The notes under the pieces are model-generated. The model saw only the letters and a list, made by a program, of their open reading frames with translations. It was not told where the DNA came from and did no database searches. A DNA stretch of 64,000 nt, from the NCBI GenBank assembly GCA_035559535.1, contig DATMBG010000006.1, positions 62,001-126,000 of the forward strand. The letters run 5' to 3'. Positions 1,282-18,289 of the stretch are shown here, in pieces. The position numbers and the translations under genes are program-made. This stretch comes from Candidatus Limnocylindrales bacterium (GTDB lineage Bacteria > Moduliflexota > Moduliflexia > Moduliflexales > JAUQPW01). Numbering within the stretch: position 1 is the stretch's first letter; each line of letters starts with the position of its first letter.

Positions 1282-3108
1282 TTACTCTTCCAGCACGTTT
1301 AGGCTTCCAGATAGAAATCCGGCCCGGCAGGCATAATGCTGGATTTTGCCACTGGAGGTTTTAGGAATGCTATTTGCTTTAAGTAGCAATACAGCATGAA
1401 TGTGCATTTCGTGATTTTCTACTACCGCCTGTCGAATGCTCCCAACTATTTCCTTGATGCTCCAACGTCTTAAATCATAGGAATGCTCCAGTTCGGCTAC
1501 AATAACGAGTCGTTCTTCACCATTCTGATCTATGGAAAATGCTGCACAGCAGCCCGGGCGTAAAGCCGGATGGCTCTGTTCCACGGTCTGTTCGATATCT
1601 TGAGGATAATAATTACGACCCCCTAGGATGATCAAATTCTTCAGACGACCCGTGACGAACAGCTCCCCCTTCTTCAAGAATCCTAAATCTCCTGTACGAA
1701 GAAAGGGGCCCTCACCGGTATCTGCCAGATAAGCCTTGAAGGTCTGCTTTGTCTCTTCGGAGCGATTCCAGTAGCCTTGAGCAACGCTGGGTCCTGATAC
1801 CCAAATCTCTCCCACCCGGTCAGGTGAACATAGGGTTAAGGATTCTGGATCGACAATAATAATCTTCTGACCCGGTAAAGATCGACCACACCCTATGAGT
1901 TTTTGGGTATCCTTTGTAGAACTATCGAGAGGGGATGCTTCTACTACCTGGTTCTGTTTTAGAGCAGTTCTCAGAACGCTGAGAACCGTGGGAAGGGTTC
2001 CTTTCAAACCACCGGAAACGATTAAAGTTGCCTCGGCCAGTCCGTAGCAAGGATAAAAGGCTTCTCGACGGAAGCCACAGGGTTCAAAGGCCTCTACAAA
2101 GCGGTCCAGAGTTTCTGCACGAACAGGCTCAGCACCATTGAAAGCCACCTCCCAGCAACTTAAGTCAAGGGTGGCTCGTTGTTCCGGGGTGATTTTCTGT
2201 ACACAGAAGTCGTAGGCAAAATTCGGACCTCCACTGGTAGTAGCTCTGGTACGGGAGATAGCTTGAAGCCATCGAAAGGGGCGTTGTAGAAAGGCAAATG
2301 GCGACATGAGTGTAACCGGAAATCCGCCATAAAGTGGCTGCAGGATACCCCCAGCAAGTCCCATGTCATGGTAAGGTGGCAACCAGATAACTCCCCGACT
2401 CTTGGGAGTATGCCCAAAACATTGATGGATCAGGGTTAAATTGTACAATAGATTACCATGGGTGAGTCTGACTCCCCTGGGCACCCCGGTAGAGCCCGAA
2501 GTGTACTGAAGAAACGCCAGGGCATTACCATCTATCGCCGGATTTTGCCATGCCTCAGCTAAAGTTTCCTGTAAATCCGGCAAAGGTTCATCTTGTTGGA
2601 TGCTGTCCAGGGTCTGTCCCAGGTAGAGTTGAAGAGGGGTCAAGGCATCCAGGGTATCGGTTATTATCCAGTGTAGGTTTTTCAAGAGGGGAGTCGGATC
2701 TAACCAACATCCTATACGGGATAAAATGGATTTCGTGGTAAGTGCCACCGTCGCCTGTGCGTCCTCTGCAATAGCCTGAAGGCGAGACATAGAACGGTTA
2801 AACCTGGGTGGATAAGCCGGAACGGCTATCACACCTGCGTACAGGCAGCCAAAAAATGCGGTAATGTATTCCAGACCCGGTGGATAGAGCAATAGGGCCC
2901 GTTCTCCGGTTACACCTGCATTTTGAAGCCAACCACCTATCATCCGGGCCTTCCGGTCCAGTTCCTCGTAGCTTATCTGAAGTTCTTCTCCTTCCCCATC
3001 AACCAGAAAAGTATAAGCCTTCTGCTGAGGTTGTTGAAGCGCCCTCAAACGGAGAAGATCGACCAGGGTAGAAATTTCGGCAGTAGAATTGAAAGGAAGT
3101 CCCGTCAT
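1282..3108 (-). CDS. Fatty acyl-AMP ligase (FAAL)
   Basis: AFLQYTSGSTGVPRGV, WLPPYHDMGL, GGPNFAYD, YPCYGLAEATL followed by the FAAL insertion, LRTGDLGF, IPKTSSGK. Confidence 0.95.
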   Translation of the reverse strand: MTGLPFNSTAEISTLVDLLRLRALQQPQQKAYTFLVDGEGEELQISYEELDRKARMIGGWLQNAGVTGERALLLYPPGLEYITAFFGCLYAGVIAVPAYPPRFNRSMSRLQAIAEDAQATVALTTKSILSRIGCWLDPTPLLKNLHWIITDTLDALTPLQLYLGQTLDSIQQDEPLPDLQETLAEAWQNPAIDGNALAFLQYTSGSTGVPRGVRLTHGNLLYNLTLIHQCFGHTPKSRGVIWLPPYHDMGLAGGILQPLYGGFPVTLMSPFAFLQRPFRWLQAISRTRATTSGGPNFAYDFCVQKITPEQRATLDLSCWEVAFNGAEPVRAETLDRFVEAFEPCGFRREAFYPCYGLAEATLIVSGGLKGTLPTVLSVLRTALKQNQVVEASPLDSSTKDTQKLIGCGRSLPGQKIIIVDPESLTLCSPDRVGEIWVSGPSVAQGYWNRSEETKQTFKAYLADTGEGPFLRTGDLGFLKKGELFVTGRLKNLIILGGRNYYPQDIEQTVEQSHPALRPGCCAAFSIDQNGEERLVIVAELEHSYDLRRWSIKEIVGSIRQAVVENHEMHIHAVLLLKANSIPKTSSGKIQHYACRAGFLSGSLNVLEE

Positions 3109-3159: not shown

Positions 3160-5490
3160 CTAATTAATTACATCCTTTATGATCCGAACTTTGTCTCCAT
3201 CCTTCAATAAAGTTTGACCGATGGTCACTACATTTTCGCCTTCATTGATTCCGCTCAAGATTTCCACAAGACCGTCTCCGGCTGACCCCACCTTAACGTA
3301 ACGCAATTGGGCAATGGAATCTGTCCCGACTACAAAAGCACTGGCTTTCCCGGCAGAGTCGACAATGGCTACTTTAGGTACTGTAGGAACGGTGCGAGAG
3401 TTTTGAATTCGAGCAAAGGCGGATAGGCCCGGTTTCAGAATCCGATTGGGATTATCGACCCGAATATGAGCTTTAAAAGTCCGGGTATCTGTATTGGTAT
3501 TTGGCTCGATTTTCACAATTGTGCCTTCCAAAACTTCATTGGGGAGGGAATCTAAAGTTACCTTTGCGGTCTGTCCGAGATGAACCGAAGTTAACTTTTC
3601 TTCGGCGACATTGGCAACGACCATAGCCGGCTGGATATTTCCGATAACCAACAAGCTGGTGCCTCCGGTACCTCCGATAATTTCACCCGGGTTGATATTT
3701 CGTTCGGTAATAACCCCTACGATGGGAGATCGTACAATTGAATTATCCAGGTCATATCGGGCCTTAGCCAGGGCTTGAAGTGCAGTTGTGTAGTTAAATA
3801 TGGCAGAGGTTAAATCTGCCTGGGAAGTAACCTCTTCATTTTTGAGGGCATTTTGGGATTTTAGCAGGTTTTCCAGGGCAGTATAGTAATCGTTCTCGGC
3901 TTGTGCCATGGCCGATTTATTGGTAACCTCTTCATTTTTGAGAGCATCTTGGGCTTTCAAGAGGTTTTCCAGGGCAGTTACATAATCCGATCTGGCCTGA
4001 GTAAGCGTAGAATTATTTGTAAACTCCTCGTTTTTCAAACTATCTTCAACTGTTTTAAGGTTCAGTAAAGCCGTACTATAATCGGCCTGTGCCGCAGCTA
4101 ATGCCGATCTATTGACTACCTCTTCATTGACCAGGGCATGCTGTGCTTTAGCAAGATCTTCTAAGGCCGTTGTATAATCAGATTGAGCCTGGGTAAGGTC
4201 GGCTTTATTGGTTACTTCTTCATTTTTCAACTCCGTTTGAACTGTTTTAAGGTCATATAAGGCCGCACTATAGTTAAACTCCGCCGAGCTTAATTCTGCC
4301 TTATTTGTAATCTCTTCGTTTTTTAAGTTATTCTGAGCGATGATATGATCTTCTAAAGATTTAACATAATTGCTTCGGGCTACGTCCAGGGCATTTTGCG
4401 CCTGCTCAAGGGCTGCTTGAGAGACAACGGATTGGTTGGTTAATTGTTTCTGACGAGCCACGGCGGCTTCACTGACCTGCACGGTGGACTTGCCGGATAT
4501 AACAGATGCTTTGGTGGTTTCCAGATGTGCAACCCACTCATCGTGCCGGGTAGGCTGGGTTTTTTTGGTCTGTTCTAACTTGGCTTTGGTACTCTCTACA
4601 TTGTCCTGGGCCTTTTTAAGATTGGCTAAAAGTTGCTCATGATTGGTAGGTTGGGTTTTTTCCACTTCTTCCAGTTTTGCTTTGGTCTTCTCAACCGTTG
4701 CTTCCGCACTTTTCACCGCGGCAACCAGTTCCTCATGTCCGGTCGCTTGCGTCTGCTTGAGCTCTTCCAACTTAGCTTTATTGCTCTCCACATCATCCTG
4801 GGCTTTTTTAAGATTGGCTAAAAGCTCTTCGTGTTGGGTGGGTTGGGTTTTTTCCACCTCTTCCAATTTTGCTTTGGTCTTCTCAACCATTGCTTCCGCA
4901 CTTTTCACCGCGGCAACCAGTTCCTCATGTCCAGTCGCTTGCGTCTGCTTGAGCTCTTCCAGCTTGGCCCGGGTTTTCTCTACATTTGTCTCGGCACTTT
5001 TCACCGCAGCAACCAACTCCTCATGTTGGGTAGATTGGGTCTGTTTGATTTCTTCCAGCTTGGCCTTTGTCATATTAACCTGCTCCTCGGCGCTTTTTAA
5101 AGCAGAGATTAATAAAGTCTGATCCAGTTCGAACAGAATCTGACCTTCCTCGACATAATCTCCTACATCCACATGGACCGCTTTCACACGGGTTCCTACC
5201 AAAGTTGAAGTAATATGGGCAAAGGATGACGGTTGTACTTCGGCGCTTGCTCCAATCTCCTCGGTGATAGTCGTTACTTTTACCGGATAGACCTTAACGG
5301 GCATGGGAGCTCCTGCCTGACGACTCTTCACAGGATTCGTTTGAATGTCATGCTTCCCGATAGCCCAAAAGATATAAGCCGGAACCAAAAGAATGGTTAA
5401 TAAACTTAAAAGAAGAGAACTCCACTTTAAAAGTTTTAACCATCGAGGGGGTGTTAATTTTACGGATTTATCGTTCATCATATTAACCAC
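3160..5490 (-). CDS. Efflux periplasmic adaptor (membrane fusion protein, HlyD/AcrA family) with a greatly extended alpha-hairpin
   Basis: N-terminal TM helix; lipoyl half-motifs VHVDVGDYVEEGQILFEL and IVRSPIVGVI; RxxxLxxxxxxS tip (RQKQLTNQSVVS); C-terminal LKPGL and GINEGENVV. Confidence 0.9.
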   Translation of the reverse strand: MVNMMNDKSVKLTPPRWLKLLKWSSLLLSLLTILLVPAYIFWAIGKHDIQTNPVKSRQAGAPMPVKVYPVKVTTITEEIGASAEVQPSSFAHITSTLVGTRVKAVHVDVGDYVEEGQILFELDQTLLISALKSAEEQVNMTKAKLEEIKQTQSTQHEELVAAVKSAETNVEKTRAKLEELKQTQATGHEELVAAVKSAEAMVEKTKAKLEEVEKTQPTQHEELLANLKKAQDDVESNKAKLEELKQTQATGHEELVAAVKSAEATVEKTKAKLEEVEKTQPTNHEQLLANLKKAQDNVESTKAKLEQTKKTQPTRHDEWVAHLETTKASVISGKSTVQVSEAAVARQKQLTNQSVVSQAALEQAQNALDVARSNYVKSLEDHIIAQNNLKNEEITNKAELSSAEFNYSAALYDLKTVQTELKNEEVTNKADLTQAQSDYTTALEDLAKAQHALVNEEVVNRSALAAAQADYSTALLNLKTVEDSLKNEEFTNNSTLTQARSDYVTALENLLKAQDALKNEEVTNKSAMAQAENDYYTALENLLKSQNALKNEEVTSQADLTSAIFNYTTALQALAKARYDLDNSIVRSPIVGVITERNINPGEIIGGTGGTSLLVIGNIQPAMVVANVAEEKLTSVHLGQTAKVTLDSLPNEVLEGTIVKIEPNTNTDTRTFKAHIRVDNPNRILKPGLSAFARIQNSRTVPTVPKVAIVDSAGKASAFVVGTDSIAQLRYVKVGSAGDGLVEILSGINEGENVVTIGQTLLKDGDKVRIIKDVIN
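4604..4962. repeat. Near-identical 192-nt tandem duplication inside the adaptor gene
   Basis: ttggtcttctcaacc...cttttcaccgcggcaaccagttcctcatgtcc...gcttgcgtctgcttgagctcttcca occurs twice, offset by 192 nt (2 x 32 codons). Confidence 0.9.
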
Positions 5491-5572: not shown

Positions 5573-6490
5573 TTAATCAATTCTTAATAAACCTTTGATC
5601 AGAAAACCAAATCCCAGTGAGACCCCAATAAATACTACCAACCAATCCAAATGCCAGCCTCCCGGTACCTCATTAAAATATCTGGGAAGATAATTAATCC
5701 GGATTACTTCAATCCAGGGATTCTCAGGAAGAGGGGTTTCATAAGGGTTATAGAAAGCCGAGAGAAACCCTTCTTGCCTTAGCTCCGGAACTATTTTCAA
5801 TTCGTGGGTTACTCCCAAGTTTATCGCCTCTGATTTCACTTCATCTGAAGGCGAAGATAAGATATTAAGATGGGTCCCTGGATTATCCGAGGCCAGCCCT
5901 TCTATGACCACCTGTTTACTGAACGTCTGGCCAAGCAACTGGAATTGGAGTGAATATTCTCCGGCTTTTTTCGCCTTGAGCCGCCAGTTAATTTCCCTTT
6001 CTTCTTCCAGACGTAGAGGTGGGGTCTCCACTTCAATGGCTTCTGGAGCTTTGAGAGTAATATCCAGGTCCAGAGGAGATTTTCCGGCTACCGTCTTGAC
6101 GGTTACAATAAAAGACTCCTCCGGTCTAAAACTTCTATATCCGTAGCGCGCATTCAGGGGTACTAGGATAAAGATAATAAGGAAAATGAGAACGAGTCCA
6201 GGTTTCAAGGAAAGGCCCATATATTTAAAATTATTCCATAGAATCTTTTTCTGGGCTAAAAGCATCTGAGTAAGATCCTCCTTATAAACCCGGATCTCCA
6301 TAAAATGGATTTTAATCTGATTCTTAACCTTTCGGATGGCTTCCTGATTAGAGGTAAATCGGTAAATTAAAACCATTAAAGTCCCCATCAGGATAGAAAT
6401 AGCCGTTAGTCCTATGATGGGATGAAATCGATGAAAGGGTATGAGAAGGATTTGTAATAGAGAATCGGATATATTTAATAGGGTTCGCAT
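5573..6490 (-). CDS. Membrane protein with an EMC3/TMCO1 (DUF106, Oxa1-superfamily)-like N-terminus and a soluble beta-rich insert
   Basis: TM1 (IIGLTAISILMGTLMVLIY), coiled coil (SNQEAIRKVKNQIKIHFMEIR...QKK), TM2 (LKPGLVLIFLIIFIL), soluble domain, then a C-terminal TM (WLVVFIGVSLGFGFLIKGLL). Family assigned from architecture only. Confidence 0.6.
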   Translation of the reverse strand: MRTLLNISDSLLQILLIPFHRFHPIIGLTAISILMGTLMVLIYRFTSNQEAIRKVKNQIKIHFMEIRVYKEDLTQMLLAQKKILWNNFKYMGLSLKPGLVLIFLIIFILVPLNARYGYRSFRPEESFIVTVKTVAGKSPLDLDITLKAPEAIEVETPPLRLEEEREINWRLKAKKAGEYSLQFQLLGQTFSKQVVIEGLASDNPGTHLNILSSPSDEVKSEAINLGVTHELKIVPELRQEGFLSAFYNPYETPLPENPWIEVIRINYLPRYFNEVPGGWHLDWLVVFIGVSLGFGFLIKGLLRID

Positions 6491-6492
6491 AA

Positions 6493-6687
6493 TTAATCAA
6501 TATATCCTAAACCACGAAGCCGTTTTTCTACTTCTTTTTCTCCCTCAGATTCCTCCCATTTGGCCAACTCTTTTTCTAAAAGATGGGTGATTAACTCCTC
6601 AACGGAAGAATATCCGGCATGGGTAGCATATTTCTCAGCTTTCTCTAAAAGATCCTTCTCAAGTTTAATTTTAGATTTTCCTAGCAT
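6493..6687 (-). CDS. Small ribbon-helix-helix (CopG-like) protein with a C-terminal RLRGLGYI motif
   Basis: KIKLEKDLLEKAE..AGYSSVEELITHLLEKEL pattern; ends EKEVEKRLRGLGYID; stop is 2 nt from the next start. Confidence 0.75.
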   Translation of the reverse strand: MLGKSKIKLEKDLLEKAEKYATHAGYSSVEELITHLLEKELAKWEESEGEKEVEKRLRGLGYID

Positions 6688-6806
6688 TTATAAATTGTTC
6701 GTTGTTCGTTGCTCGTAGTAGCCCCAGAGGCGTAAAAACCATAAGGACAGGCTTTTTGGCTTATTTCTCTCTGGATCTCCCATGGCAAAGAACAACGAAT
6801 AGCGGA

Positions 6807-8861
6807 CTAGAAAATAGGTTTTCCTTCCATTTCTTGACTCTCCAATCCAAATTCCTTTAAGATCGTCGGAGCGATATCGATGAGTCCCGGGTGGGTCGAT
6901 TGGATCTTCTTATTGGTCAGAATGAGACCCGGCACCAGTTCCGCCGCCATGCAATGGTCGCCGCTCCATTTTTTTCTGTTTTCTCCCAAAAGTTCCTGGG
7001 GAACTTTTCCTAAAGCCGTTTCCCAGGAAGCCCGATAACCCCGGTCATAGCCTATAATTAAATCGGGAGTCGTTCGAGGATCATACCCCGAATAAATCTC
7101 CTCAGCTCGATAAACCCTTTTAATAATAGGTCTCTGGTTTTCAGGATCTTTAACTTCCAGGAGTTTTTGGCTGAGTTCCTTAATCAGTTTTTCTCTCTGT
7201 AAAGTGGGTTCTATAATGCCTTGGCTTTCACGACCCCTTAAATTGAGATAAAGACTGTTGAGACCTAAGGCGTAAGCTTTTGTACCCAACCAATCTATAT
7301 TCTCGAAAAACTCATCACTTTCCTTTCGGGCTGGATCCAGGAATTTCATATATCCATTCTGAACCAGCCAGGTATTCAAATTAAAAAACTTATAGAACGG
7401 GGCAAAGCCATGATCCGACACGACGATAAGGGTAGTATCCGAATCTAACCGGCTCATGGTCGTGGCTAAGATATCATCCATGTGTTTGTAAACAAATCGG
7501 ATTACATCTTTTTCAGCGGGGGGGAAGGATCCATCTTCCCTGGAGGAATACATGGGATGTTGGGGATCCCTGTAGCGCCAGAACATATGTTGAAGAAGAT
7601 CGGTGGAGGAGAAGTAGGCAAAGAGTAGGCCGTCTTTAAAACGTTCCAACTCAAATCGGTAAATTTTAAGCTGGTCTTGCATGACGAACTTACTTTGCTG
7701 GAGAAACTCCGCATCACTCAAACGGTTTTCGTTCAATGCCCAGGTATCCTCTGCGATTCCCTGGGTATAAAAACGTCCTATAGATTTTGCTAGCTGAGCG
7801 GAATAATCTGCCGGCGTTGAGATGGGAAAAGGAGGTTCCAGGGGATCGATATTCAGGGGGGAAACATACAATTCAAACTCAGGATGAACCTGTTTAAGAT
7901 AGAATCGGCAAATACCTACAATTTTGGAGAAAGGGGCCAGCTTAAATTCAACCCGAATCCAATCACTCCATTCTCCTTCTTTTAGAAGGATTTCCTGATC
8001 TTGTACTACAAACTTAGCAACAGGGTTTACGGGATCTACCTTTACAGTAAATTCTGTTTCGACAGGGGGGGCATCTTTTTTAAAGAGATTACTCGGACCG
8101 ATCAGGGTAGACCGAATCTCCTGGCCTTTCTTGTCTACATGGTAAATCTCGCCGCTGGTAACCTTCCCCTCCTCCTTGGGTTTTGTGGTATAGAAGGAAA
8201 AAGTTCCATAGGTCCCCCGGATATCCGGAGTGCCCATTCCAGAGAGAGACCTGGCTTTACTTTGTACAGGAGGAAAATTTACCGGAATTCGCAGAACTGT
8301 GGAAGGGATATTATGCTCGCTCAGGATTTCCCAAAAAGCTTTTCCTTTCCTGAGGAGTTCTGTTTTAACATTGGAAAGGGGGATGACCCAATTTCCCAGG
8401 CTTATTTTCTTTTCCGGTGCCCGGACCCGGGCCATGGAAAAAAATGGAATATACTGTTCTGGATCCCGAGAAATAAAGTCGTAAATGTTGTGTTTACCCG
8501 GATTTAATCCGGTAATGAAGGTAGACCAGGCTACCGGGCTCTGAGGAGGAACGGTAGTGGCCAGGGGTAAAAAATCTCCCTGTTCCCTGAGAGCCTGAAA
8601 GTGAGGAAGATCTCCCTCTTTTATAAATTCATCCAATAAAGCCGGGTCCATTCCATCAAATCCAAGCACCAGAACCTTTTTTGAAGGTCCTGGGAGCGCA
8701 GATGCCGTGCCTGTCAGGACCTGTCTCTTCTTCGCGAGACGTACGGGTCGATGGCCATCGACCCGTACATCTCGGTTTACATCCATGAAAAAAATCCCGA
8801 GAAGAGCAAACAGGCAGACAAAATAGCCTATGCCAGTCAGTAGAAGCTTAAATCGAGTCAA
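6807..8861 (-). CDS. Alkaline phosphatase superfamily, type I phosphodiesterase/nucleotide pyrophosphatase-like, with N-terminal signal/anchor
   Basis: LGFDGMD, TTVPPQSPVAWSTF (Ser nucleophile), TDLLQH, VSDHGF, SGDH; hydrophobic N-terminus. Confidence 0.9.
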   Translation of the reverse strand: MTRFKLLLTGIGYFVCLFALLGIFFMDVNRDVRVDGHRPVRLAKKRQVLTGTASALPGPSKKVLVLGFDGMDPALLDEFIKEGDLPHFQALREQGDFLPLATTVPPQSPVAWSTFITGLNPGKHNIYDFISRDPEQYIPFFSMARVRAPEKKISLGNWVIPLSNVKTELLRKGKAFWEILSEHNIPSTVLRIPVNFPPVQSKARSLSGMGTPDIRGTYGTFSFYTTKPKEEGKVTSGEIYHVDKKGQEIRSTLIGPSNLFKKDAPPVETEFTVKVDPVNPVAKFVVQDQEILLKEGEWSDWIRVEFKLAPFSKIVGICRFYLKQVHPEFELYVSPLNIDPLEPPFPISTPADYSAQLAKSIGRFYTQGIAEDTWALNENRLSDAEFLQQSKFVMQDQLKIYRFELERFKDGLLFAYFSSTDLLQHMFWRYRDPQHPMYSSREDGSFPPAEKDVIRFVYKHMDDILATTMSRLDSDTTLIVVSDHGFAPFYKFFNLNTWLVQNGYMKFLDPARKESDEFFENIDWLGTKAYALGLNSLYLNLRGRESQGIIEPTLQREKLIKELSQKLLEVKDPENQRPIIKRVYRAEEIYSGYDPRTTPDLIIGYDRGYRASWETALGKVPQELLGENRKKWSGDHCMAAELVPGLILTNKKIQSTHPGLIDIAPTILKEFGLESQEMEGKPIF
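8741..8768. repeat. Perfect 28-bp palindrome inside a CDS
   Basis: gtacgggtcgatgg|ccatcgacccgtac; a near-identical intergenic copy lies at 8926-8953. Confidence 0.9.
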
Positions 8862-8868
8862 TAGTTTG

Positions 8869-9021
8869 CCGTCTGTTATCCGTTGTCTGTAATAGCTCCA
8901 GAGACCCAGAAAACATGGAGATAAAGTACGGGTCGATGGTCATCGACCCGTACGTTTTATTTCTCCCCAGGTTCTCTGACTCTTTGTGGCCAAGCACAAC
9001 AAACAATGGGCAACGGACGCC
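8869..9021. repeat. Nested intergenic hairpin: 7-mer arms, inner arms and a central palindrome at 8926-8953
   Basis: ccgtctgttatccgttgt...acaacaaacaatgggcaacgg flanks gagacccagaaaacatggaga...tctccccaggttctctgactct, which flanks gtacgggtcgatggtcatcgacccgtac. Confidence 0.7.
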
Positions 9022-9023
9022 TG

Positions 9024-11207
9024 TCAAAACAGCGATTTTCCATCAAAATAAGGCGGAACTTCAACTCCTAAGGATTTTAAAATGGTTGGAGCAATATCGA
9101 CAATATGGGGAGATGTTGTCCGAACAGGTCGATTGCAGAAAAGAACTCCCGGGACCAATTGAGGATCCATACAGTGATCTCCACCCCAGGCTTTTTCGTT
9201 ATTTTTAAAGACCTGCTCATCTAACCTTCCGGTTACTGATTCCCAGGAAGCCCGATATCCTTTATTATATCCGATGATGAGATCGGGAGCATTCTCCATG
9301 TAGGGACCCGAGTAAACCTCCCGGCTATCATAAACTCTCCGGATAGCAACCTCACCGGTTTCCTCATCCTTCAAGCCTGTGAGTTTCATGCTCAATTCTT
9401 TCTTCAACTCCTCAAACTCTCTCCCGGGTTTCACAATTCCCATGGCTTCCCGCCCTTTCAGGTTGATATATAGGCCTGCCAGGCCTAAAGCGTATGCCTT
9501 GGTTCGACTCCAATCTACCCGTCTCAGCCAATCATTCCCCCTACTTCCGGTGTTTTCTTCCAGAAACAGATAACCATTCTGATATAACCAGGTATTCAGA
9601 TTAACCCCACGTTGGAACCGGCTAAATCCATGATCGGACATAACCAGAAGAAGGGTCTTCTCATCAACCTTTTCCATTACCCGCCCCAGCAGATCATCCA
9701 TACGCTTATAAAGGTCCGGTATGACACCTGTAAGGGAGTGGGAGAGTGGGGGGGTATGGGAGTATGGAGGTGGGGGAGTATGGAAGTGTGGAAGTATGGA
9801 AGTGTGGGGGTGTAGGGGAGATTCGCCTATACTCCCATACTCCCTCCCCTCCATACTTTCTTTCTTCCAATACTTCCAGAACATGTGCTGAATCCGATCG
9901 GTTGTATCGAAAACACATACACATAGACCTTTTCGAATTTTCTCTAATTCGTGAAAGAGCATCTTCTCCCGCTCTTCATGGATCAGGTAAGCCTGTTCCA
10001 GAAAAGCTTTTTCATCCAGTGCCCCTTCGTTTAAGGCCCAGGTATCCTCGGCGAGTCCTAAGGTCGTATAACTTCCGATTACTTTAGCCAGGTAGATGGA
10101 GTAGATAAAGGGATATGATATGGGAAGGGCCGGATTTTCGGGGTCGATGTTGATGGGGGAGAGATAGAGTCCAAATTCCGGGAAGATACTTTTGAGATAA
10201 AACCGACAGATCCCGTAAACTTTCATTCCCAGACCTAATTTGAAGGTGAGGCGAACCCAGGGAGAATATTGTCCTTTTTTGAGCCGAAGCTTCTGACCTG
10301 AAACTTCCAGTTCAACCTCTTCTGAATCTTTATAGATGGTAATGAAAAGGGGCAGTTTGATTTCGGTGCGTTTCTTAAGGATTGGATTTTCCGGTCCTTC
10401 AATAAAGGTTCGGATTTTGTTTTCTACGATTTCTACTTTAAAAAATCTTCCTTCGGTGTGCCCTTCAAGTTCATCCTGGCTGGTTGTATAGTAGGAAAAG
10501 GTGCCTTGCGAGCCTCTTAGATCGGGTACCCCCATAGCCGATAACACACGGCCTGCAAACTTTTCCGGCGGAAAGGTAATGGGAACCCGCAGAATAGAAC
10601 TGGAAATACCTTTTTCCCCGAGGATATTCCAAAAGGGTTTTCCTTTCCGCAGAAGTTTAATTTGAGGTCTTCCCAAAGGAATCACATACTTTCCCAGGGA
10701 GAGGGTTCTGGAAGGTCCTCCAATATGAGCTGAAGAAAGGTAGGGAAGATAGGTTTTGCGATCGCGGCTCAAGAAATCAAATATATTATGTCTTCCCGGA
10801 TTGACTCCCGTGATAAAGGAAGACCAGGCAACCGGGGATATGGAAGGGGTAGTCGTCTGAAGTCGGTGATAGCTCCCCATCTCTTTGAGTTTTGAAAAAT
10901 TTTTGAGATGTCCTTGTTCCATGAGCTCTTCCACCGTAGAGGGGTCCATACCATCCAATCCGATCACAATAACCCGATCGATATCACTTTTAACATAGCC
11001 TTTTTTCCTTTTCAATTTGATTAAAACAAGCCTTACAGGCAACAGGATAAGGGCCAGTAAAGCTAAAAGAAAGGTAGCCAACAAAATAAAAAAGGAACTA
11101 AAAAAGGCAAACCCAGCTCCCGGGCCAATATAGGCAGAGGCTATGGAAGGTAAACCCAGCAAAGCCACTATAAACAGATAAAATATAATGAGGCTTTTTT
11201 TCATCAT
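9024..11207 (-). CDS. Alkaline phosphatase superfamily phosphodiesterase-like protein with signal peptide, YIGPG motif and TM anchor (paralog of 6807-8861)
   Basis: Likely start MMKKSLII at 11207 (the longer ORF start overlaps the upstream gene); ASA|YIGPGAGFAFF then TM then KLKRKK; IGLDGMD, TTTPSISPVAWSSF, TDRIQH, MSDHGF, GGDH. Confidence 0.9.
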   Translation of the reverse strand: MMKKSLIIFYLFIVALLGLPSIASAYIGPGAGFAFFSSFFILLATFLLALLALILLPVRLVLIKLKRKKGYVKSDIDRVIVIGLDGMDPSTVEELMEQGHLKNFSKLKEMGSYHRLQTTTPSISPVAWSSFITGVNPGRHNIFDFLSRDRKTYLPYLSSAHIGGPSRTLSLGKYVIPLGRPQIKLLRKGKPFWNILGEKGISSSILRVPITFPPEKFAGRVLSAMGVPDLRGSQGTFSYYTTSQDELEGHTEGRFFKVEIVENKIRTFIEGPENPILKKRTEIKLPLFITIYKDSEEVELEVSGQKLRLKKGQYSPWVRLTFKLGLGMKVYGICRFYLKSIFPEFGLYLSPINIDPENPALPISYPFIYSIYLAKVIGSYTTLGLAEDTWALNEGALDEKAFLEQAYLIHEEREKMLFHELEKIRKGLCVCVFDTTDRIQHMFWKYWKKESMEGREYGSIGESPLHPHTSILPHFHTPPPPYSHTPPLSHSLTGVIPDLYKRMDDLLGRVMEKVDEKTLLLVMSDHGFSRFQRGVNLNTWLYQNGYLFLEENTGSRGNDWLRRVDWSRTKAYALGLAGLYINLKGREAMGIVKPGREFEELKKELSMKLTGLKDEETGEVAIRRVYDSREVYSGPYMENAPDLIIGYNKGYRASWESVTGRLDEQVFKNNEKAWGGDHCMDPQLVPGVLFCNRPVRTTSPHIVDIAPTILKSLGVEVPPYFDGKSLF
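9733..9862. repeat. GGGAGTAT/ATACTCCC 8-mer inverted array translated in frame within the AlkP gene
   Basis: gggagtgggagagtgggggggtatgggagtatggag...atactcccatactccc; encodes EYGSIGESPLHPHTSILPHFHTPPPPYSHTPPLSHS. Confidence 0.85.
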
Positions 11208-11256
11208 TTTGTTTTTGTTGGTTGAAATGTAAGCTAGCATGTAACTCCAGGGGGTG

Positions 11257-11802
11257 TCAAGATTGAAATTTTTTACCGCCCCAGTGTATGACCAGAAAAA
11301 GGATAATACCAAATAAGATGGTTTCAAAGGCGATGGTTTCCCAATTGATTATAGACCATATTCCCAATTTAAAATCTACAGAAGGAAGTAAGGCCATAGG
11401 GGAGGTATATTTTTTAGTGATCCAGGGATAAAATATAGCGATCCCCTGTCCGCTCCGGTGCCCCAATTCATCTCCGCAAAAAAAGTCCATAAAGCCATGG
11501 GAGAAGATGAGGATAAAATACCGGAAAATTTTTTGTAATCTCTGTTCGATGGGAGAAAAAAAGCTCAGGGTCACGGCCAGCAGGAGGGCAAAAAAGGGAC
11601 TATGGGTAAAAGTCCTATGGATGGCATGCCGGTCCCCATAGACCCAAATCCCTGCCAGCATATCTATATCCGGTAAATTGGCCAGCGTCACGGCCGTCAG
11701 GATCTCCCATTTTTGTTCCCATACCTGCCCCCACCGTTTATAAGGATTCCACAAAAAGTAGAGACTCAGGCCTGCCAGAGAATGACCTACCGGTGATGAC
11801 AT
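11257..11802 (-). CDS. Membrane metal-dependent hydrolase (YdjM/DUF457-like)
   Basis: MSSPVGHSL, NLPDIDM, HRTFTHS, SHGFMDF motifs; start chosen at Met 11802. Confidence 0.85.
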   Translation of the reverse strand: MSSPVGHSLAGLSLYFLWNPYKRWGQVWEQKWEILTAVTLANLPDIDMLAGIWVYGDRHAIHRTFTHSPFFALLLAVTLSFFSPIEQRLQKIFRYFILIFSHGFMDFFCGDELGHRSGQGIAIFYPWITKKYTSPMALLPSVDFKLGIWSIINWETIAFETILFGIILFLVIHWGGKKFQS

Positions 11803-11859
11803 CAATGAAATAGGAACCAGAAATCCGAATTCAAAATCCAAAATTTAAACTTCTGGCTT

Positions 11860-13068
11860 CTAATTTCTACCTTCCGACTTCTGAAGTACTTTCTCATACA
11901 CCTCATCGATCTTCTCGGTGATAGCATTTAAACTAAACAATTCATCGACAGTTTTGCGGGCATTTTCTCCCAATCGACGTCGAAGTTCGGGATCTTTTAG
12001 GAGTTTAACAATCCCCCAACCGATTTCTTCGGCGCTGTGATCCTTCACTACAATGGCATCATACATGTTTTTCAAACCCTTAGAAGATCCGAGTGGACAA
12101 ACGATGGCATTTCCGGCTGCCATGTAGTTAAGCATTTTGATGGGAACACCCGGGCAATCCGGTCTAGAAACGACGGCAACGTCGGCTGCAGCTAAAAAGT
12201 AGGGAATTTCTTCCAAAGGCCTTTCGTCGGTGAAGAGGATATTTTTCAGAACTCCTAATTCGCTGGCCATAGTTCGGTACTTAGCAAGCTGAGCCTCATC
12301 GATATAGTTCCCAACCATCAGAAGAAGGGCTTGGGGAAATTCAGAGACAACCACTTTCATAGCCTGGATGAGGTAATCGATCCGCTGAAATTCATTGAGA
12401 AGTCCCGTATAGATGATCACCGGTCTTCCCCCTAAATTATATTTACGCCGCATGAGCTCTGGATCTTTATTTTGGAACATGGTCGGATCAATTCCCATTC
12501 GGATCAGGGTCATTTTCTTAGGATCAATTCCCTTCTCAAGGAGGAAATCGAACAATTCTTCTGCAATGGGAATCACATGATCTGCCATACGAGGAACCGT
12601 ATAGTCTAAGGCTTTAGCAAGACCAACGGCCAGGAATTTAGGTCGGATGAAATCATAGCTGGGTAATTCATCAATCATAGAATTGAGTTGAGTATATACC
12701 AAAGGTTTGCCCGTCCATTTCTTACCCAAATATCCAATAATCCCTCCTTCATAGTTATAGCCATGAATCACATCTACTCGATACTTTTTAATAACTTGAC
12801 AAAGCTTCCAAACCATTTGCAAATCAAATAGAGGTCTTTGGGCCGTGGGTCCTACGACGATCCGTTGGGAACCCCCAACCATACGGACTCGATGAAGGAT
12901 CAATCCGGGGTGGAGGGGAATTTTATCTTGAAGGGGATAGGTAATGACATGCACTTCATGACCTTTCTTGGCCTGAACCTGGATAATCTCTCGAATACTG
13001 GCCGGGGTTCCATGATTAACCGGAAACGGGCAAGGAGCTATGGCAGCTATGCAAAGAGGTCGTTTCAT
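11860..13068 (-). CDS. Glycosyltransferase family 4 (GT-B fold)
   Basis: GHEVHVIT, IIYTGLL..QRIDYLIQA, AADVAV..GVPIKMLNYMAAG, ELRRRLGENAR. Confidence 0.9.
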   Translation of the reverse strand: MKRPLCIAAIAPCPFPVNHGTPASIREIIQVQAKKGHEVHVITYPLQDKIPLHPGLILHRVRMVGGSQRIVVGPTAQRPLFDLQMVWKLCQVIKKYRVDVIHGYNYEGGIIGYLGKKWTGKPLVYTQLNSMIDELPSYDFIRPKFLAVGLAKALDYTVPRMADHVIPIAEELFDFLLEKGIDPKKMTLIRMGIDPTMFQNKDPELMRRKYNLGGRPVIIYTGLLNEFQRIDYLIQAMKVVVSEFPQALLLMVGNYIDEAQLAKYRTMASELGVLKNILFTDERPLEEIPYFLAAADVAVVSRPDCPGVPIKMLNYMAAGNAIVCPLGSSKGLKNMYDAIVVKDHSAEEIGWGIVKLLKDPELRRRLGENARKTVDELFSLNAITEKIDEVYEKVLQKSEGRN

Positions 13069-13071
13069 GTT

Positions 13072-13162
13072 AGAGAAGTAGAGGGGTATGGGAGTGGGAA
13101 AGTATTAGGAGAATATACTCCCATACTCCCATACCCCCCTGCCCCCATACCCCCACACTCTC
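13072..13162. repeat. 8-mer tandem inverted-repeat hairpin (GGGAGTAT/ATACTCCC)
   Basis: gaggggtatgggagtgggaaagtat...atactcccatactcccatacccc. Confidence 0.85.
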
Positions 13163-13173
13163 GGTAGCTTTCC

Positions 13174-14118
13174 TTAAAAGGCTTTTAATTGCTTACTAAA
13201 CCACTCCGTTGTCTGTTTCAGACCGTCATCGATAGAAGTCTTGGGTACCCATCCCAGCTTATCACCTGCTTTTTTGATGGAGATGTAATAGGTCTCTACT
13301 TTTTCCTTCTTCGTCAGGTCAAAGGATACATTTAAATGAGGCACTAATTCTTGGAGACTATCCAGAATAGATCGTGTAGAGGTTTGGGTTTCCCCACAGA
13401 TGTTAAATATTTCATTCTCCTGATCCAGGGCCAGTACCACGGCGTCCACCAAATCTTCCAGGTAAATAAATTGACGTGTGCGTTTTCCTTCTCCCCAGAC
13501 TACAATACGTTCTCCTTTTAAACCCTGCTCGATAAAAGTTCGGATCACATTAGATCCGTTCCCACATCCATATACAGAACCGAATCGCAGGATAATGTAT
13601 TTGATTCCATACTTTTTCTGATAGTCTTTAATGAGTTGTTCACTGAACAGCTTGCTCCGGGAGAAAGGTCCTAGATTGGTGATATCAATGGCCGTGGTTT
13701 CATCTACAAAATCTCGGCCACAATTCTCATAAATTAAAAATGTACTGGCAAAGAGAATCTTAGGGATTTTATGGGTACGGCAAATTTCTAAAATGTTAGC
13801 CGTTCCCATTTCGTTAATATAGACCGCATGGTAAGGATTGGAGTTCGCATCATCGGCAACTAATCCAGCAAGATGGCAGACGATATCCACATCTTTGGGT
13901 ATTGCCCGGCTGAGTTCATCAAGTTTAGTAATATCCACCAGTTTTAACCTTTCTGCCGGATAGCCATTTCCGTTAAGGGAAGCTTGCTTATCTATTACCA
14001 GAACCTGATGGCCTATTGCCTGGAGTCTCCTGACCAGGGCTTGACCAATAAATCCGGCACCACCTGTAACGACAATATTTTTAGGAACTATTGGATTTTT
14101 TGAATTCATGCCAGGCAC
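13174..14118 (-). CDS. NAD-dependent epimerase/dehydratase (extended SDR)
   Basis: VTGGAGFIG, VCHLAG, FAST..IY, LRFGSVYG, WGEGKRTRQFIYLEDL; the YxxxK motif reads FSRSK. Confidence 0.88.
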   Translation of the reverse strand: MPGMNSKNPIVPKNIVVTGGAGFIGQALVRRLQAIGHQVLVIDKQASLNGNGYPAERLKLVDITKLDELSRAIPKDVDIVCHLAGLVADDANSNPYHAVYINEMGTANILEICRTHKIPKILFASTFLIYENCGRDFVDETTAIDITNLGPFSRSKLFSEQLIKDYQKKYGIKYIILRFGSVYGCGNGSNVIRTFIEQGLKGERIVVWGEGKRTRQFIYLEDLVDAVVLALDQENEIFNICGETQTSTRSILDSLQELVPHLNVSFDLTKKEKVETYYISIKKAGDKLGWVPKTSIDDGLKQTTEWFSKQLKAF

Positions 14119-15215
14119 CTCCCAATGGAATCGACTACATATCTGGCCTCTTCATCTGTCAGGGTATAATAGATCGGAGGACAGATATGCCTTTTAGCCA
14201 GATCTTCCGAAACAGGCAGACTTTCTGTTGCATAATCTTTAAAAACCGGTTGTAAATGGCAGGGAACTTCATAAACGTACCCTCCCATGGTCACGTTATA
14301 ATCTGCCTTCATTTTTTTATGGAATAAATCTCGATCTACCCCTGGGGGAAGGAAAGCTATATATTTGTAGAAATTGTGTCGGACATTGGCAGGAACTTTC
14401 AAAGTACTAATCTGAGGGATTTCACGGAATTTCTCATCATAAATTTTAGCAATTTCATTTCTTCGTTGAATAAACGAATCCAGTTCACTTAACTGAGCAA
14501 GTCCCAGAAGGGCTTCTACTTCCGGCATCCGCCAGTTATATCCGAACTCCCGATGGTAATTGGTGTTATTGATCTTCGCATGATTCCTCAGGAGCAAAGC
14601 CCGGTTATAAATATCCGGATCGTTGGTGGTAACCATTCCGCCTTCCCCCGTCGTCATAACCTTGGTTGAGAAAAAAGAAAATCCTGCTGCGATCCCTAAG
14701 GTTCCTGCTTTTCTGCCATCCAGAGCGCTCCCATGGGCATGGGCAGCATCTTCGACCAGGAGGAGTCCTTTTTCCTTACAAAGGTCCATGAGTTCATAGG
14801 TATGGGGAGAGACAAGTCCTCCGATGTGAACGGTAATAATGACCTTGGTCTTCGGAGTTAAGCGCTTTCGCACATCCTCAGGATCTACAGTCATATCCGA
14901 GGTACAATCTGCAAAAATCGGTCGACCTCCCGCACTTATTACTGTATAGGCTGTGGCGGCGAAGGTCATCGTAGGGACGATGACATCATAATCTTTCACG
15001 CCGATGGCCCGAAGGATAATCTCTAAAGCTGAAGTTCCACTATTACAACTAACGGCAAATTTAGTTCCTATATAACTGGCAAAGCTTTTCTCAAAGTTCT
15101 CTCCATGCTTATACATGGAGAGAAAAGACTTTCCTTCTAAAATCTCTCGAAAATGGGTCAGAATAAACTCAATACTAGAAGGTGAAAAATAAGCTTTCGT
15201 TGCAGCTATCTTCAT
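14106..15215 (-). CDS. DegT/DnrJ/EryC1/StrS PLP-dependent sugar aminotransferase
   Basis: NSGTSAL, VEDAAHAHG, FSFFSTKVMTTGEGG (PLP Lys), GYNWRM. Confidence 0.93.
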   Translation of the reverse strand: MKIAATKAYFSPSSIEFILTHFREILEGKSFLSMYKHGENFEKSFASYIGTKFAVSCNSGTSALEIILRAIGVKDYDVIVPTMTFAATAYTVISAGGRPIFADCTSDMTVDPEDVRKRLTPKTKVIITVHIGGLVSPHTYELMDLCKEKGLLLVEDAAHAHGSALDGRKAGTLGIAAGFSFFSTKVMTTGEGGMVTTNDPDIYNRALLLRNHAKINNTNYHREFGYNWRMPEVEALLGLAQLSELDSFIQRRNEIAKIYDEKFREIPQISTLKVPANVRHNFYKYIAFLPPGVDRDLFHKKMKADYNVTMGGYVYEVPCHLQPVFKDYATESLPVSEDLAKRHICPPIYYTLTDEEARYVVDSIGRCLA

Positions 15216-17260: not shown

Positions 17261-18289
17261 CTATGCAAGATATAAACCGTTTCCTTCTACTTCTAAAAGT
17301 TCACAGGATCCCTGTTTTTCCCCTTTATAGCCCTGCGCGATCTGCCTCAATTCTTCTTTGTAAACCTCCTCCATGAGCCTTCTCGCCTTTCCCAGGTTAT
17401 AAACCCCGGTTAAGCCTACCCTTTGTGCATTTAGTGCAGCCGCAGCGTGGGCAAACAAATTGGCCCGGAGAACGTCTGGCTCCTTTACATAGTAGGCCAG
17501 AAAAGCCGAAATGAAGACATCTCCACAGCCGGTGGGATCTACTACCTTTTCCAGAGGGACCCCTCGGGAGACGTAAAAATAGATGGTATTATCGGCATCT
17601 CGATAAACAAGCTGAGATCCTTCCGATCCAAGGGTAATCAATACCACCGAAACCCCCTGTCGAATCAGTTTTAATGCAGTCTGCAGATAGGGCTCTTCTA
17701 AAAGACTTGCCCCATCGGATAAGGTTCTGATTTCATTCTCATTCAGTTTAACGATATCTACCCGGTCTAACCACTTTCGCCAATCTGGAATAGGTCGGAA
17801 AAACTTGGTTCCATCCTCCTTTAAACCGGTACTGAGCCATTGAACATCCACACAGAGTAGCCCGGTTCTATGGGTTTTGAGGTAATTCAGGGCTTCCAGC
17901 GAAATATCCGATCCGGAGATAAAATTCACAAGTATGGCTTCTGCAGACAGACCCCCTTGGACCTCTGATAACGAAAGGGGAGAAACTCGACAGGCGAGTT
18001 TTTCTGTTCGGGTATTCACAGAGGTGTAAGTAATTACATTTTCGTTGGTTCCCCCCGGGTCCCTCTGGATGTGATCCAGCCGAATCTGGGGAAAAGGTTT
18101 ACACAACGAGAGGATAGCTTCATAGTGATCCACTCCTATTTTGCATATCGGCAAGATGGTATCACCGGCAGGAAGGAGAGTAGCCAGGGACAGAACATTA
18201 TAGAGAATTCCCCCAAAGCTTTGCTGGATCTTTCCATCGGGCAAAATGAGGGTATCGAGATTGATGGTTCCAATAACAGCAATATTCAA
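17261..18289 (-). CDS. PfkB-family carbohydrate kinase
   Basis: IAVIGTINLD, VKLNENE, ITLGSEGS, VDPTGCGDVF. Confidence 0.9.
   Translation of the reverse strand: MNIAVIGTINLDTLILPDGKIQQSFGGILYNVLSLATLLPAGDTILPICKIGVDHYEAILSLCKPFPQIRLDHIQRDPGGTNENVITYTSVNTRTEKLACRVSPLSLSEVQGGLSAEAILVNFISGSDISLEALNYLKTHRTGLLCVDVQWLSTGLKEDGTKFFRPIPDWRKWLDRVDIVKLNENEIRTLSDGASLLEEPYLQTALKLIRQGVSVVLITLGSEGSQLVYRDADNTIYFYVSRGVPLEKVVDPTGCGDVFISAFLAYYVKEPDVLRANLFAHAAAALNAQRVGLTGVYNLGKARRLMEEVYKEELRQIAQGYKGEKQGSCELLEVEGNGLYLA

Follow-up and report, generated by a model that had tools for sequence, protein, structure and literature searches.

A conserved bacterial gene core of two NPP-type alkaline phosphatase superfamily paralogues, a 64-aa tail protein and a DUF106-like membrane protein, with a possible role in group transfer across the membrane

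The window analysed here is a stretch of 64,000 nt from Candidatus Limnocylindrales bacterium (GenBank assembly GCA_035559535.1, contig DATMBG010000006.1, positions 62,001 to 126,000), and positions 5573-11207 of it carry four co-oriented genes on the minus strand, named here in the direction of transcription AlkP_A, AlkP_B, p64 and D106. Together they form the core of an envelope system kept in many bacteria, the parts of which belong to known superfamilies and the combination of which is without a known counterpart. A first-pass annotation, made from the sequence alone, had set these genes out as a candidate module for moving a group across the inner membrane and had remarked that no characterised system has this composition. 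The listing of open reading frames (ORFs) places all four genes on the minus strand at the coordinates it gave, and no description of the gene combination was found in the literature searched. The core genes, together with a third paralogue (AlkP_C) that is separated from AlkP_A by five genes, are as follows.

5573-6490, minus strand: D106, a 305-aa bacterial DUF106/Ylp1/EMC3-like membrane protein.
6493-6687, minus strand: p64, a 64-aa protein, CopG/ribbon-helix-helix (RHH)-like, with the C-terminus RLRGLGYID.
6496-6525, minus strand: the p64 tail, residues 55-64 (KRLRGLGYID), all 10 of which lie in the predicted AlkP_A interface.
6807-8861, minus strand: AlkP_B, a 684-aa paralogue of the nucleotide pyrophosphatase/phosphodiesterase (NPP) type (PF01663), predicted to be exported.
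9024-11207, minus strand: AlkP_A, a 727-aa membrane-anchored NPP-type (PF01663) protein, its catalytic domain predicted to be cytoplasmic.
10974-11207, minus strand: the N-terminal module of AlkP_A, residues 1-78, with a predicted Sec-type signal, YIGPGAG, a membrane helix, P-V-R and KLKRKK.
15386-17116, minus strand: AlkP_C, a 576-aa signal-less PF01663 paralogue of the COG3379 type, with the tail in cis.

The longest ORF covering AlkP_A is 9024-11327, and the ATG at 11207 (MMKKSL...) is the probable start. The start codon of D106 is 2 nt past the stop codon of p64.

Relatives of D106 were scanned for in one genome for each of 185,579 species, which gave 313 places, and the best 80 loci were kept; neighbours were counted over eligible loci, meaning loci with enough DNA for the neighbour in question. 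Searches with the window proteins (tblastn) found the order AlkP_A, AlkP_B, p64, D106 on one strand wherever room allows, with p64 in 76/76 eligible loci, AlkP_A in 58/58 and AlkP_B in 65/66 (absent in L057). The median gaps along this order are 171, 21 and 54 nt, and D106 is more than 500 nt away from p64 in three loci. Identity of the orthologues is about 50-57% for AlkP_A, 44-54% for AlkP_B, 47-68% for p64 and 31-42% for D106. Most of the loci are labelled by their submitters as Aminicenantes, the further labels being Acidobacteriota/Terriglobia, Omnitrophota, Dadabacteria, Thermodesulfobacteriota, 'Deltaproteobacteria', Chloroflexi and Pseudomonadota. Closer to the window, D106 is present in 6 of 41 genomes (40 relatives and the window's own), and a relative from the same order has all four core genes. 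The four genes had been treated in the first-pass annotation as one unit, and their order does recur in 80 loci from several phyla, a clustering that is far beyond chance. That the four are merely unrelated neighbours is very improbable, since order, strand and tight spacing are kept across phyla and p64 all but abuts D106.

At least 40 of 50 eligible loci have a signal-less AlkP of ~431 aa directly upstream of the core. In the non-Aminicenantes loci L019, L022, L046, L050, L060 and L069 the core is adjoined by a sulfatase-family protein (PF00884, ~631 aa) with an extra N-terminal region of ~217 aa, which in L019 and L060 lies between p64 and D106. In one variant, L084 (G025:C9), a shorter D106-like ORF (243 aa) sits between two AlkP paralogues, and no p64 was detected there by tblastn at E ≤ 1e-5.

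AlkP_A, AlkP_B and AlkP_C match PF01663 (Phosphodiest) with 109.9, 125.6 and 162.9 bits, respectively, against a cut-off of 23. AlkP_A and AlkP_B are 44% identical and have in common every motif from which they had been called close paralogues, namely SPVAWS, G(V/T)PD(L/I)RG, AEDTWALNE and GYRASWE. Residues D85, S124, D437, H441, D525, H526, D677 and H678 are invariant in 30 aligned AlkP_A sequences, and these catalytic columns are also conserved in AlkP_B and AlkP_C. By analogy with NPP structures, they would be the nucleophile (S124) and six metal-ligand positions. AlkP_A has a beta-rich insert at ~240-400 without counterpart in AlkP_C. When AlkP_B was compared with Protein Data Bank (PDB) sequences using phmmer, there were 0 matches at E ≤ 0.01. 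The AlphaFold 2 (AF2) model of AlkP_C (predicted local distance difference test, pLDDT, 87.6) has an NPP fold, and a fold search matched it to ENPP6, ENPP1, the Xanthomonas (Xac) NPP and PhnA at E 1e-14 to 1e-16; ENPP7 is also among the matches, and for 5egh the E value is 9e-17 with a template modelling (TM) score of 0.47 by query and 0.66 by target. All five proteins were searched against PADLOC, which covers anti-phage defence including PglZ-type AlkP domains, and 0 families were matched at E ≤ 0.01.

The two paralogues of the core differ at their N-termini. AlkP_A begins with MMKKSLIIFYLFIVALLGLPSIASA, followed after the predicted cleavage site by YIGPGAGFAFFSSFFILLATFLLALLALILLPVRLVLIKLKRKKG, so that the module in the window consists of a predicted Sec-type signal ending in A-S-A (...PSIASA, then Y), YIGPGAG, a helix, P-V-R and KLKRKK. 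A basic n-region, a hydrophobic h-region and a small residue at -1 were found in all 55 AlkP_A orthologues with a complete N-terminus, as were [YFW][IV]GPGAG, a membrane helix and then ~26 residues, in which the median count is 7 for K/R (minimum 5) and 1 for D/E. Cleavage is predicted before the module Tyr, which would leave the mature N-terminus exported, and because the basic cluster follows the helix, the positive-inside rule would place the catalytic domain in the cytoplasm. AlkP_B carries an export signal in 67/67 orthologues, which is a twin-arginine (Tat) signal in 57/67 and a lipobox-like signal or anchor in the remaining 10. The window copy has one N-terminal hydrophobic anchor or signal (MTRFKLLLTGIGYFVCLFALLGIFF); its start, MTRFKLLL..., contains no RR, and the Tat motif (RRxFLK) is absent. 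In L001, a relative with 91% identity, the flank C-terminal to the anchor is nearly uncharged, and an N-in/C-out orientation of the window AlkP_B is favoured for that reason. The N-terminal features described in the first-pass annotation for the two proteins are thus in the sequence as described, and the module in 55/55 and the export signal in 67/67 argue for the opposite topologies that it had assigned to them. Co-export of p64 with AlkP_B by Tat 'hitch-hiking' was considered and rejected, since 10/67 AlkP_B orthologues and the window copy use non-Tat signals.

The YIGPGAG motif occurs once in the window's own genome, and in the 80 loci it is on AlkP_A only (56 matches). When AlkP_A residues 1-78 were searched exhaustively with HMMER against 1.84 billion representatives, 567 matched at E ≤ 1e-3, and the motif is present in 142 of the 150 best. 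Many of the matches are complete proteins of 70-126 aa, composed of a signal, A-x-A and, past the predicted cleavage site, Y-[IV]-G-P-G-A-G; a helix follows, then WPxR and a basic cluster, and the protein ends in a short hydrophilic tail. Across 11 sequences of this stand-alone module A20, A22, Y23, G25, P26, G27, G29 and P54 are invariant; A-x-A-Y-x-G-P-G-x-G is invariant in the stand-alone family, with A at both -3 and -1. Two candidate fusions were set aside as they look like merged or frame-shifted gene calls, one running from a D106-like C-terminal part into the start of AlkP_A (P0335) and the other from a sulfotransferase-like part into the module (P0250).

AlkP_C has no signal and ends in ...YSDEETLEISERLKGMGYIE, a tail of the SERLKGMGYIE type preceded by an acidic linker, the same arrangement as in p64. 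In the AF2 model this tail forms a helix (559-572, pLDDT about 80). The AlkP_C family has more than 6,365 matches under the Joint Genome Institute (JGI) name 'predicted AlkP superfamily phosphohydrolase/phosphomutase' (COG3379 type), and no characterisation of a COG3379-type family was found in the literature searched. The tail is on 116 of the 120 best matches, and all of 40 aligned sequences have Y557, L569, G573 and Y574. Genome-wide, the tail pattern closes five ORFs, namely p64, AlkP_C, a further AlkP-like one located on the same contig, one that is sulfatase-like and one of 150 aa, the last of which probably matches by chance; being on AlkP-like and sulfatase-like ORFs, the tail is therefore on two branches of the alkaline phosphatase superfamily. 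The second AlkP-like protein (contig C6, ORF ending at 25024 on the plus strand, 578 aa) and the sulfatase-like protein (contig C37, ORF ending at 144856 on the plus strand, 581 aa, with a DPGETRNL motif) both have tails of the form ...RL(Q/K)G(I/L)GY(L).

In p64 the tail (L57-x-G59-L-G-Y62-I63) stands on a separate small protein, in which it follows a CopG/RHH-like part and an acidic linker; there is no signal peptide. Residues L13, G25, Y26, S28, E31, E40, E50, K55, L57 and G59-L-G-Y-I63 are invariant in 32 aligned sequences. The Tyr of p64 and the Tyr of the AlkP_A module are thus both invariant or nearly so, a conservation on which the first-pass annotation had staked its proposal. What it had called a stand-alone LGY-tail peptide is indeed a separate 64-aa gene with that tail, but a CopG-like domain precedes the tail, which is itself common to COG3379 AlkPs. 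Matches of p64 to PF19891 (DUF6364; E 0.0017, 19.3 bits) and to NikR N-terminal models (E 0.003-0.005) are below the curated cut-offs (27.3 bits for PF19891), and its feature neighbours in the ESM Atlas are automatically named CopG family (score 0.95), with no Pfam family in common. Among 311 candidates none scored as a fusion of p64 to a longer protein, a blank that counts as weak evidence.

Multimer prediction, named in the first-pass annotation as a way to probe the module, was run for the p64-AlkP_A pair, using AlkP_A residues 70-727 (30-row alignment) and p64 (32 rows) in three runs with three controls. The interface score ipSAE was 0.71, 0.70 and 0.70 in the three runs and 0.00 in the best control; at least 87% of contacts are common to the runs, and the pLDDT of the partner is at least 79. 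The ipSAE mark is reached by 58 of 80 solved complexes and by 2 of 110 mismatched pairs, counts that hold only roughly because author-made alignments were used. In the model, p64 makes contact through residues 22, 24-28, 31-32, 35, 47-50, 53 and all of 55-64, which are its invariant parts. The AlkP_A residues in contact near the catalytic site are 123 (beside S124), H441 (presumably a metal ligand) and 679 (beside H678). Others are 231-236, 389-390, 655-661 and 674, and a second patch comprises 133-157, 188-190, 634-636 and 718-720. Conservation at the interface exceeds the average in AlkP_A orthologues (0.82 vs 0.72) and does not in AlkP_B (0.67 vs 0.69), with Q234, W390, P635 and I123 specific to AlkP_A. 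The model supports binding of p64 to AlkP_A, with the p64 tail predicted to lie over the bimetal catalytic cleft. As the tail is what COG3379 enzymes carry in cis, AlkP_A, which is tail-less, appears to receive it in trans. The -LGYI tail is the hallmark of a family of more than 6,000 members of no known function, for which the predicted seat over the cleft is a first handle.

The CopG-like features of p64 also permit a simpler account, in which p64 is a CopG-type operon repressor and nothing more, its contact with AlkP_A a modelling artefact and its tail a quirk of the family. The automatic naming of the Atlas clusters, the weak NikR N-terminal and DUF6364 matches and a predicted strand-helix-helix layout typical of the CopG-type fold all speak for it. 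However, every family match is below its curated cut-off, the most conserved residues of p64 (G25, Y26, S28, E31, H35, L57 and G59-I63) are those of the predicted interface, the complex controls scored 0.00, the partner surface is conserved in AlkP_A only, and the tail is common to enzymes rather than regulators. We give this account a small chance.

The window D106 sequence on its own matched no Pfam model, even at E ≤ 10. In a large protein collection it has 92 relatives, some of which carry the JGI name 'DUF106 family', and 33 of 43 aligned family members match PF01956 (EMC3_TMCO1) at E ≤ 1, the best at E 1.2e-7 (32.1 bits vs a cut-off of 27.1, profile positions 9-113 of 169). The family profile, searched against the PDB at E ≤ 10, found only MJ0480 (5c8j), an archaeal 'YidC-like protein', at E 3.6e-8; the match spans helices 1 and 2 and the coiled coil between them, and the last helix is matched weakly and separately. 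In the AF2 model (pLDDT 85, predicted TM score 0.76) helices 24-46, 49-68 with 73-116, and 283-301 would form a three-helix membrane core, a K/R-rich coiled coil follows helix 1 (as also seen in the alignment), and an Ig-like beta domain (~120-270) is inserted between helices 2 and 3. Residues 201-228 are a low-confidence stretch, an insert present only in the window's close relatives. The family is invariant at two positions that close helix 1 (S47 and Q49) and, within the beta domain, at T156-P-P-L-R160, W169 and R170. For the positive-inside rule the sequence offers the K/R-rich stretch after helix 1 and a basic C-terminus.

The first-pass annotation had described the 305-aa protein as Oxa1-like. 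Foldseek with the whole model against the PDB gave Ig-like beta-sandwich matches only (best E 1.7e-3), with no Oxa1-family chain among the top 50 matches listed, because the beta domain sits between the last two helices; the ESM Atlas model, on the other hand, has TM scores of 0.64-0.65 over 248-249 residues to two archaeal clusters that are 99-100% PF01956. Homology to the Oxa1 superfamily accordingly rests on profiles, among them that to the superfamily member MJ0480, and the annotation's assignment holds: D106 is homologous to Ylp1/DUF106 of archaea, but encoded in bacteria. The available parts of two papers describe DUF106 as archaeal and eukaryotic (PMC5868721, PMC8675477), and no paper on a bacterial DUF106 system was found in the literature searched. 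A canonical YidC is also encoded in the genome (PF02096, 224.5 bits), which makes D106 an accessory member. A bacterial DUF106 branch with a small membrane partner, present beside YidC, is relevant to how membrane insertases evolved and how wide their functions are.

Where the module is a separate protein, it keeps similar company. A metagenome scan with the stand-alone module alignment gave 445 confirmed places, of which 80 loci (L085-L164) were kept, and in 78 of these the module is a stand-alone small ORF. The operon found there has, in order, a membrane-anchored aryl-sulfotransferase, the Tyr-microprotein, a DUF106-like protein of ~251 aa and a PF13469 sulfotransferase. Among loci with room, a PF14269/PF05935 aryl-sulfotransferase with an N-terminal membrane helix is upstream of the module in 29/42, a signal-less PF13469 sulfotransferase is the second gene downstream in 25/33, and hidden Markov models (HMMs) found a DUF106-like ORF near the module in 49/56, directly after it in 48 and 1.6 kb away in one. 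The HMM of the window family alone matches the sister DUF106-like ORF down to E 5e-17, and hhalign relates the two families with a probability of 99.4% (E 2.7e-21, 233 columns). MJ0480 is again the top PDB match of the sister family (E 7e-5). Both families keep an invariant S-x-Q where helix 1 ends, and they have different motifs in the periplasmic domain. At E ≤ 1e-4 the 80 sister loci yielded no relative of p64. A C-terminus with [LF]GY no more than 2 residues from the end is found on 8/32 of the sister PF13469 sulfotransferases, compared with 1/470 other ORFs. The module/DUF106 pair recurs, then, in two systems, each with one enzyme predicted to be cytoplasmic and one predicted to be exported, of matched chemistry. 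The same membrane pair in two chemistries (phosphoester and sulfate) points to an undescribed coupling of reactions across the inner membrane.

Some details of the sister loci are recorded here. Sulfotransferases with an (L/F/Y)GY C-terminus are those of L092, L095, L100, L107, L123, L124, L128 and L132, and a partial ORF just upstream of the module, L094:1-465, ends in ...EELRGLGYVN. In L101 (4870-5250), L121 (8208-8585), L158 (8213-8602) and L163 (1880-2269) the DUF106-like gene is replaced by one for a ~129-aa protein with hydrophobic helices and a charged middle stretch, without the beta domain. The HMM of this protein matched 12 loci, and it may be a minimal version of the DUF106-like protein.

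Our preferred interpretation, put forward tentatively and at rather less than an even chance, is a two-sided group-transfer machine in which the membrane pair passes a group between AlkP_A and AlkP_B. D106 and the module would form a membrane heterodimer, like EMC3-EMC6 or GET1-GET2, that couples the cytoplasmic enzyme to the exported enzyme of the same chemistry. AlkP_A would take a phosphoryl-containing group (phosphate, phospho-alcohol or nucleotidyl) from a cytoplasmic donor, with the p64 Tyr tail priming or gating its active site. The group would cross the membrane by way of the cytoplasm-open groove of D106, the processed N-terminal Tyr of the module being the likeliest covalent way-station, and AlkP_B would deliver it outside. 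By analogy, the logic would be that of DltB-DltX-DltD, carried out by unrelated proteins. The transfer idea of the first-pass annotation gains partial support, in that the module and the DUF106-like protein recur together in a sulfotransferase operon with a cytoplasmic and an exported enzyme, and in that the p64 Tyr tail is predicted to lie over the catalytic cleft of AlkP_A.

A more general reading, which we consider unlikely, would make the bacterial EMC3/Ylp1-like protein and the Tyr-microprotein a trans-membrane 'group shuttle' that carries groups as a tyrosyl ester. The groups would be of the phosphoryl type (from AlkP_A to AlkP_B) or sulfuryl groups (from a sulfotransferase using 3'-phosphoadenosine 5'-phosphosulfate, PAPS, to the periplasmic aryl-sulfotransferase), and the DltB/DltX/DltD principle would have been reinvented with an Oxa1-superfamily protein as the conduit. 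If true, it would also explain the source of activated sulfate for periplasmic aryl-sulfotransferases.

Several points weigh against transfer of a group between the two enzymes. Oxa1-family proteins are described in the available parts of the literature as insertases and, in one abstract, as a lipid scramblase, and not as conduits for small groups. The Tyr of the cleaved module would be periplasmic, a membrane's width from the active site of AlkP_A. In the models p64 is docked firmly and does not swing, which would fit a lid, a pseudosubstrate or a structural subunit as well as a carrier, and both AlkPs appear to keep all the catalytic residues of the hydrolase type, which is compatible with simple hydrolysis. 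The window AlkP_B has no Tat motif, and the charges flanking its anchor are ambiguous as to orientation. In the sister loci, 7/56 stand-alone modules have no DUF106-like neighbour, and with a Tyr ending on only 8/32 of the sulfotransferases a cytoplasmic Tyr tail is not universal.

Some of the same observations suit an alternative that we regard as doubtful, though deserving of serious weight, in which D106 is a dedicated insertase or scaffold for the hairpin anchor of AlkP_A, the AlkPs are independent phosphodiester hydrolases and p64 is an inhibitory or regulatory cap (a pseudosubstrate). Each AlkP would hydrolyse nucleotides, lipid head groups or polymers on its own side of the membrane, for example in phosphorus scavenging or turnover. 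Translocon-independent clients of Oxa1-family proteins are simple, with few helices and small translocated regions, according to the part of PMC5868721 that is available, and the module fits that description. The NPP-type catalytic residues are all kept in both paralogues, the closest folds of AlkP_C (ENPP6, ENPP1, Xac NPP and PhnA) are hydrolases, the predicted position of the p64 tail over the cleft suits a lid, and a nucleotide phosphodiesterase facing the cytoplasm plausibly needs an inhibitor. Left unexplained are the stand-alone AxA/YxGPGxG microprotein (the stroke marking the cleavage site), which has a DUF106-like gene beside it at the frequency given above, and the fact that in both systems a cytoplasmic enzyme is paired with an exported one of matching chemistry; a YidC, moreover, is already in the genome.

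Still less probable, in our estimate, is that D106 and the module are a scramblase or flippase for a membrane-bound phospho-compound (a sulfo-compound in the sister system). This compound would be produced or trimmed by the cytoplasmic enzyme and used outside by the exported one, with the Tyr residues structural. YidC is also termed a lipid scramblase, besides being described as an insertase, in the available part of PMC11997395. NPP members act on lipid head groups, with ENPP6 and ENPP7 among the fold matches, the catalytic domain of AlkP_A is predicted to be tethered at the inner leaflet, and in the precedent of Cpz8/Cpz4, discussed below, the carrier is a small phenolic compound. Against this account, none of the genes conserved with the core is for lipid synthesis, and it does not say why the processed N-terminal Tyr and the p64 tail are invariant.

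The core lies in a longer run of genes in the window, of which the following features belong to neither the core nor AlkP_C, except for the tandem repeat inside AlkP_A.

1282-3108, minus strand: a fatty-acyl-AMP ligase gene (ORF listing, same run of genes).
3160-5490, minus strand: a gene for a HlyD/RND-adaptor protein of 776 aa (ORF listing, same run).
9730-9814, no strand: an octamer tandem repeat inside AlkP_A, an in-frame insert.
11257-11841, minus strand: YdjM (ORF listing, same run).
11860-13068, minus strand: a GT4 glycosyltransferase gene (ORF listing, same run).
13174-14118, minus strand: an epimerase gene (ORF listing, same run).

Between AlkP_A and AlkP_C (11257-15215) are genes for YdjM, GT4, NAD-epimerase/dehydratase and DegT-type aminotransferase proteins, and PfkB-kinase and glyoxalase genes are found upstream (17261-18798). 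The first-pass annotation had suggested a glycolipid or glycan as acceptor. This finds no support, as the sugar genes beside the core in the window are absent in the same-order relative, where the region within 10 kb on either side is without the window's GT4, epimerase, DegT, YdjM, HlyD-type and fatty-acyl-AMP-ligase genes; the PfkB-kinase and glyoxalase genes are likewise missing near its core. Flanks of the Aminicenantes type (acyl-CoA synthetase, thioredoxin-like, HD, aminotransferase and nitroreductase) are lineage-specific. The neighbour genes were therefore rejected as a clue to the substrate.

The HlyD/RND-adaptor-family protein encoded directly downstream of D106 is unusually long, its coiled-coil hairpin being multiplied by 96/192-bp tandem repeats (3827-5097), and its counterpart in L001, a locus from the same genus, is 97% identical. 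The octamer array in AlkP_A (GGGAGTGT/GTATGGGA type) has about 7-10 copies and adds an in-frame insert of ~31 aa, rich in His, Pro, Thr and Ser, that is present in 0 of 29 aligned orthologues. A similar array, ATACCCCC repeated five times, is at 13115-13155 in the spacer between the GT4 and epimerase genes. The spacer between AlkP_A and AlkP_B contains a perfect palindrome (8926-8953) with a 12-bp stem of which 7 pairs are G-C, terminator-like on both strands. A scan of the window for promoters and terminators was at the level of shuffled sequence (29 vs 25.4 ± 4.8 and 18 vs 21.2 ± 4.7, respectively).

Among known systems, D106 is closest to MJ0480/Ylp1, PF01956, EMC3, TMCO1 and GET1, with which it has detectable homology, a three-helix core and a basic coiled coil after helix 1. 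It differs from MJ0480/Ylp1 in being bacterial, in carrying an Ig-like insert of ~150 aa between helices 2 and 3, in being encoded with enzymes and beside a canonical YidC, and in having a sequence that by itself misses the Pfam model. Heterodimers of Oxa1-superfamily proteins with small membrane proteins are described in the available part of PMC8675477. In EMC3-EMC6, GET1-GET2, TMCO1-C20orf24 and archaeal YidC with an EMC6-like protein, a DUF106-type protein is paired with a small membrane partner, as here. The partner in the present system, by contrast, consists of a signal peptide and one helix with a YxGPGAG N-terminus.

The catalytic proteins resemble the NPP branch (ENPP1/3/6/7, Xanthomonas NPP and PhnA) in belonging to PF01663 and in the conserved Asp/His and nucleophile positions, and AlkP_C also in its predicted fold. 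They depart from that branch in having Ser rather than Thr as the predicted nucleophile, in the ~240-400 insert of AlkP_A, and in the membrane anchor or the Tyr tail, in trans or in cis. The COG3379 family, of which AlkP_C is a member, shares with p64 the C-terminal YS.EEE..I..RL..LGYI[ED], but in the core system the tail is on a separate 64-aa protein.

The logic proposed here is most like that of DltB-DltX-DltD and PatA-PatB, which combine an MBOAT protein, a Tyr 'acyl shuttle' motif and an SGNH protein. According to the part of PMC12148441 available, DltX is a membrane microprotein whose invariant Tyr ferries a group between an enzyme in the membrane and an outer one; in one pathway the motif forms a protein by itself, and other pathways have it fused. 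An invariant Tyr would likewise lie at the outward-facing end of the microprotein here, the motif is a separate protein in the sister system and part of an enzyme in the window, and enzymes are predicted on both sides of the membrane. In contrast to the Dlt and Pat proteins, which are of unrelated families, the module motif is N-terminal (A, cleavage, Y[IV]GPGAG) rather than a C-terminal FxYxxF, and the proposed group is phosphoryl or sulfuryl rather than acyl, so that the analogy is one of logic only. No MBOAT or SGNH family was found among the neighbours scanned against Pfam.

For the sister operon the nearest precedent is Cpz8/Cpz4, in which a carrier is loaded by a PAPS-dependent enzyme and then unloaded by an aryl-sulfotransferase, as the available part of PMC6731281 describes. 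The sister operon likewise has a PAPS-type sulfotransferase (PF13469) together with an aryl-sulfotransferase (PF14269), but its two enzymes would sit on opposite sides of the membrane, and the proposed carrier is a protein Tyr instead of a pyrone. According to the portion of PMC13426309 available, aryl-sulfotransferases are enzymes of the periplasm that can use tyrosine and Tyr peptides as acceptors, their natural acceptors being mostly unknown. By analogy, the proposed relay would thus have three precedents, in the Tyr of DltX, in the two-step sulfation by Cpz8/Cpz4 and in the use of Tyr peptides by aryl-sulfotransferases.

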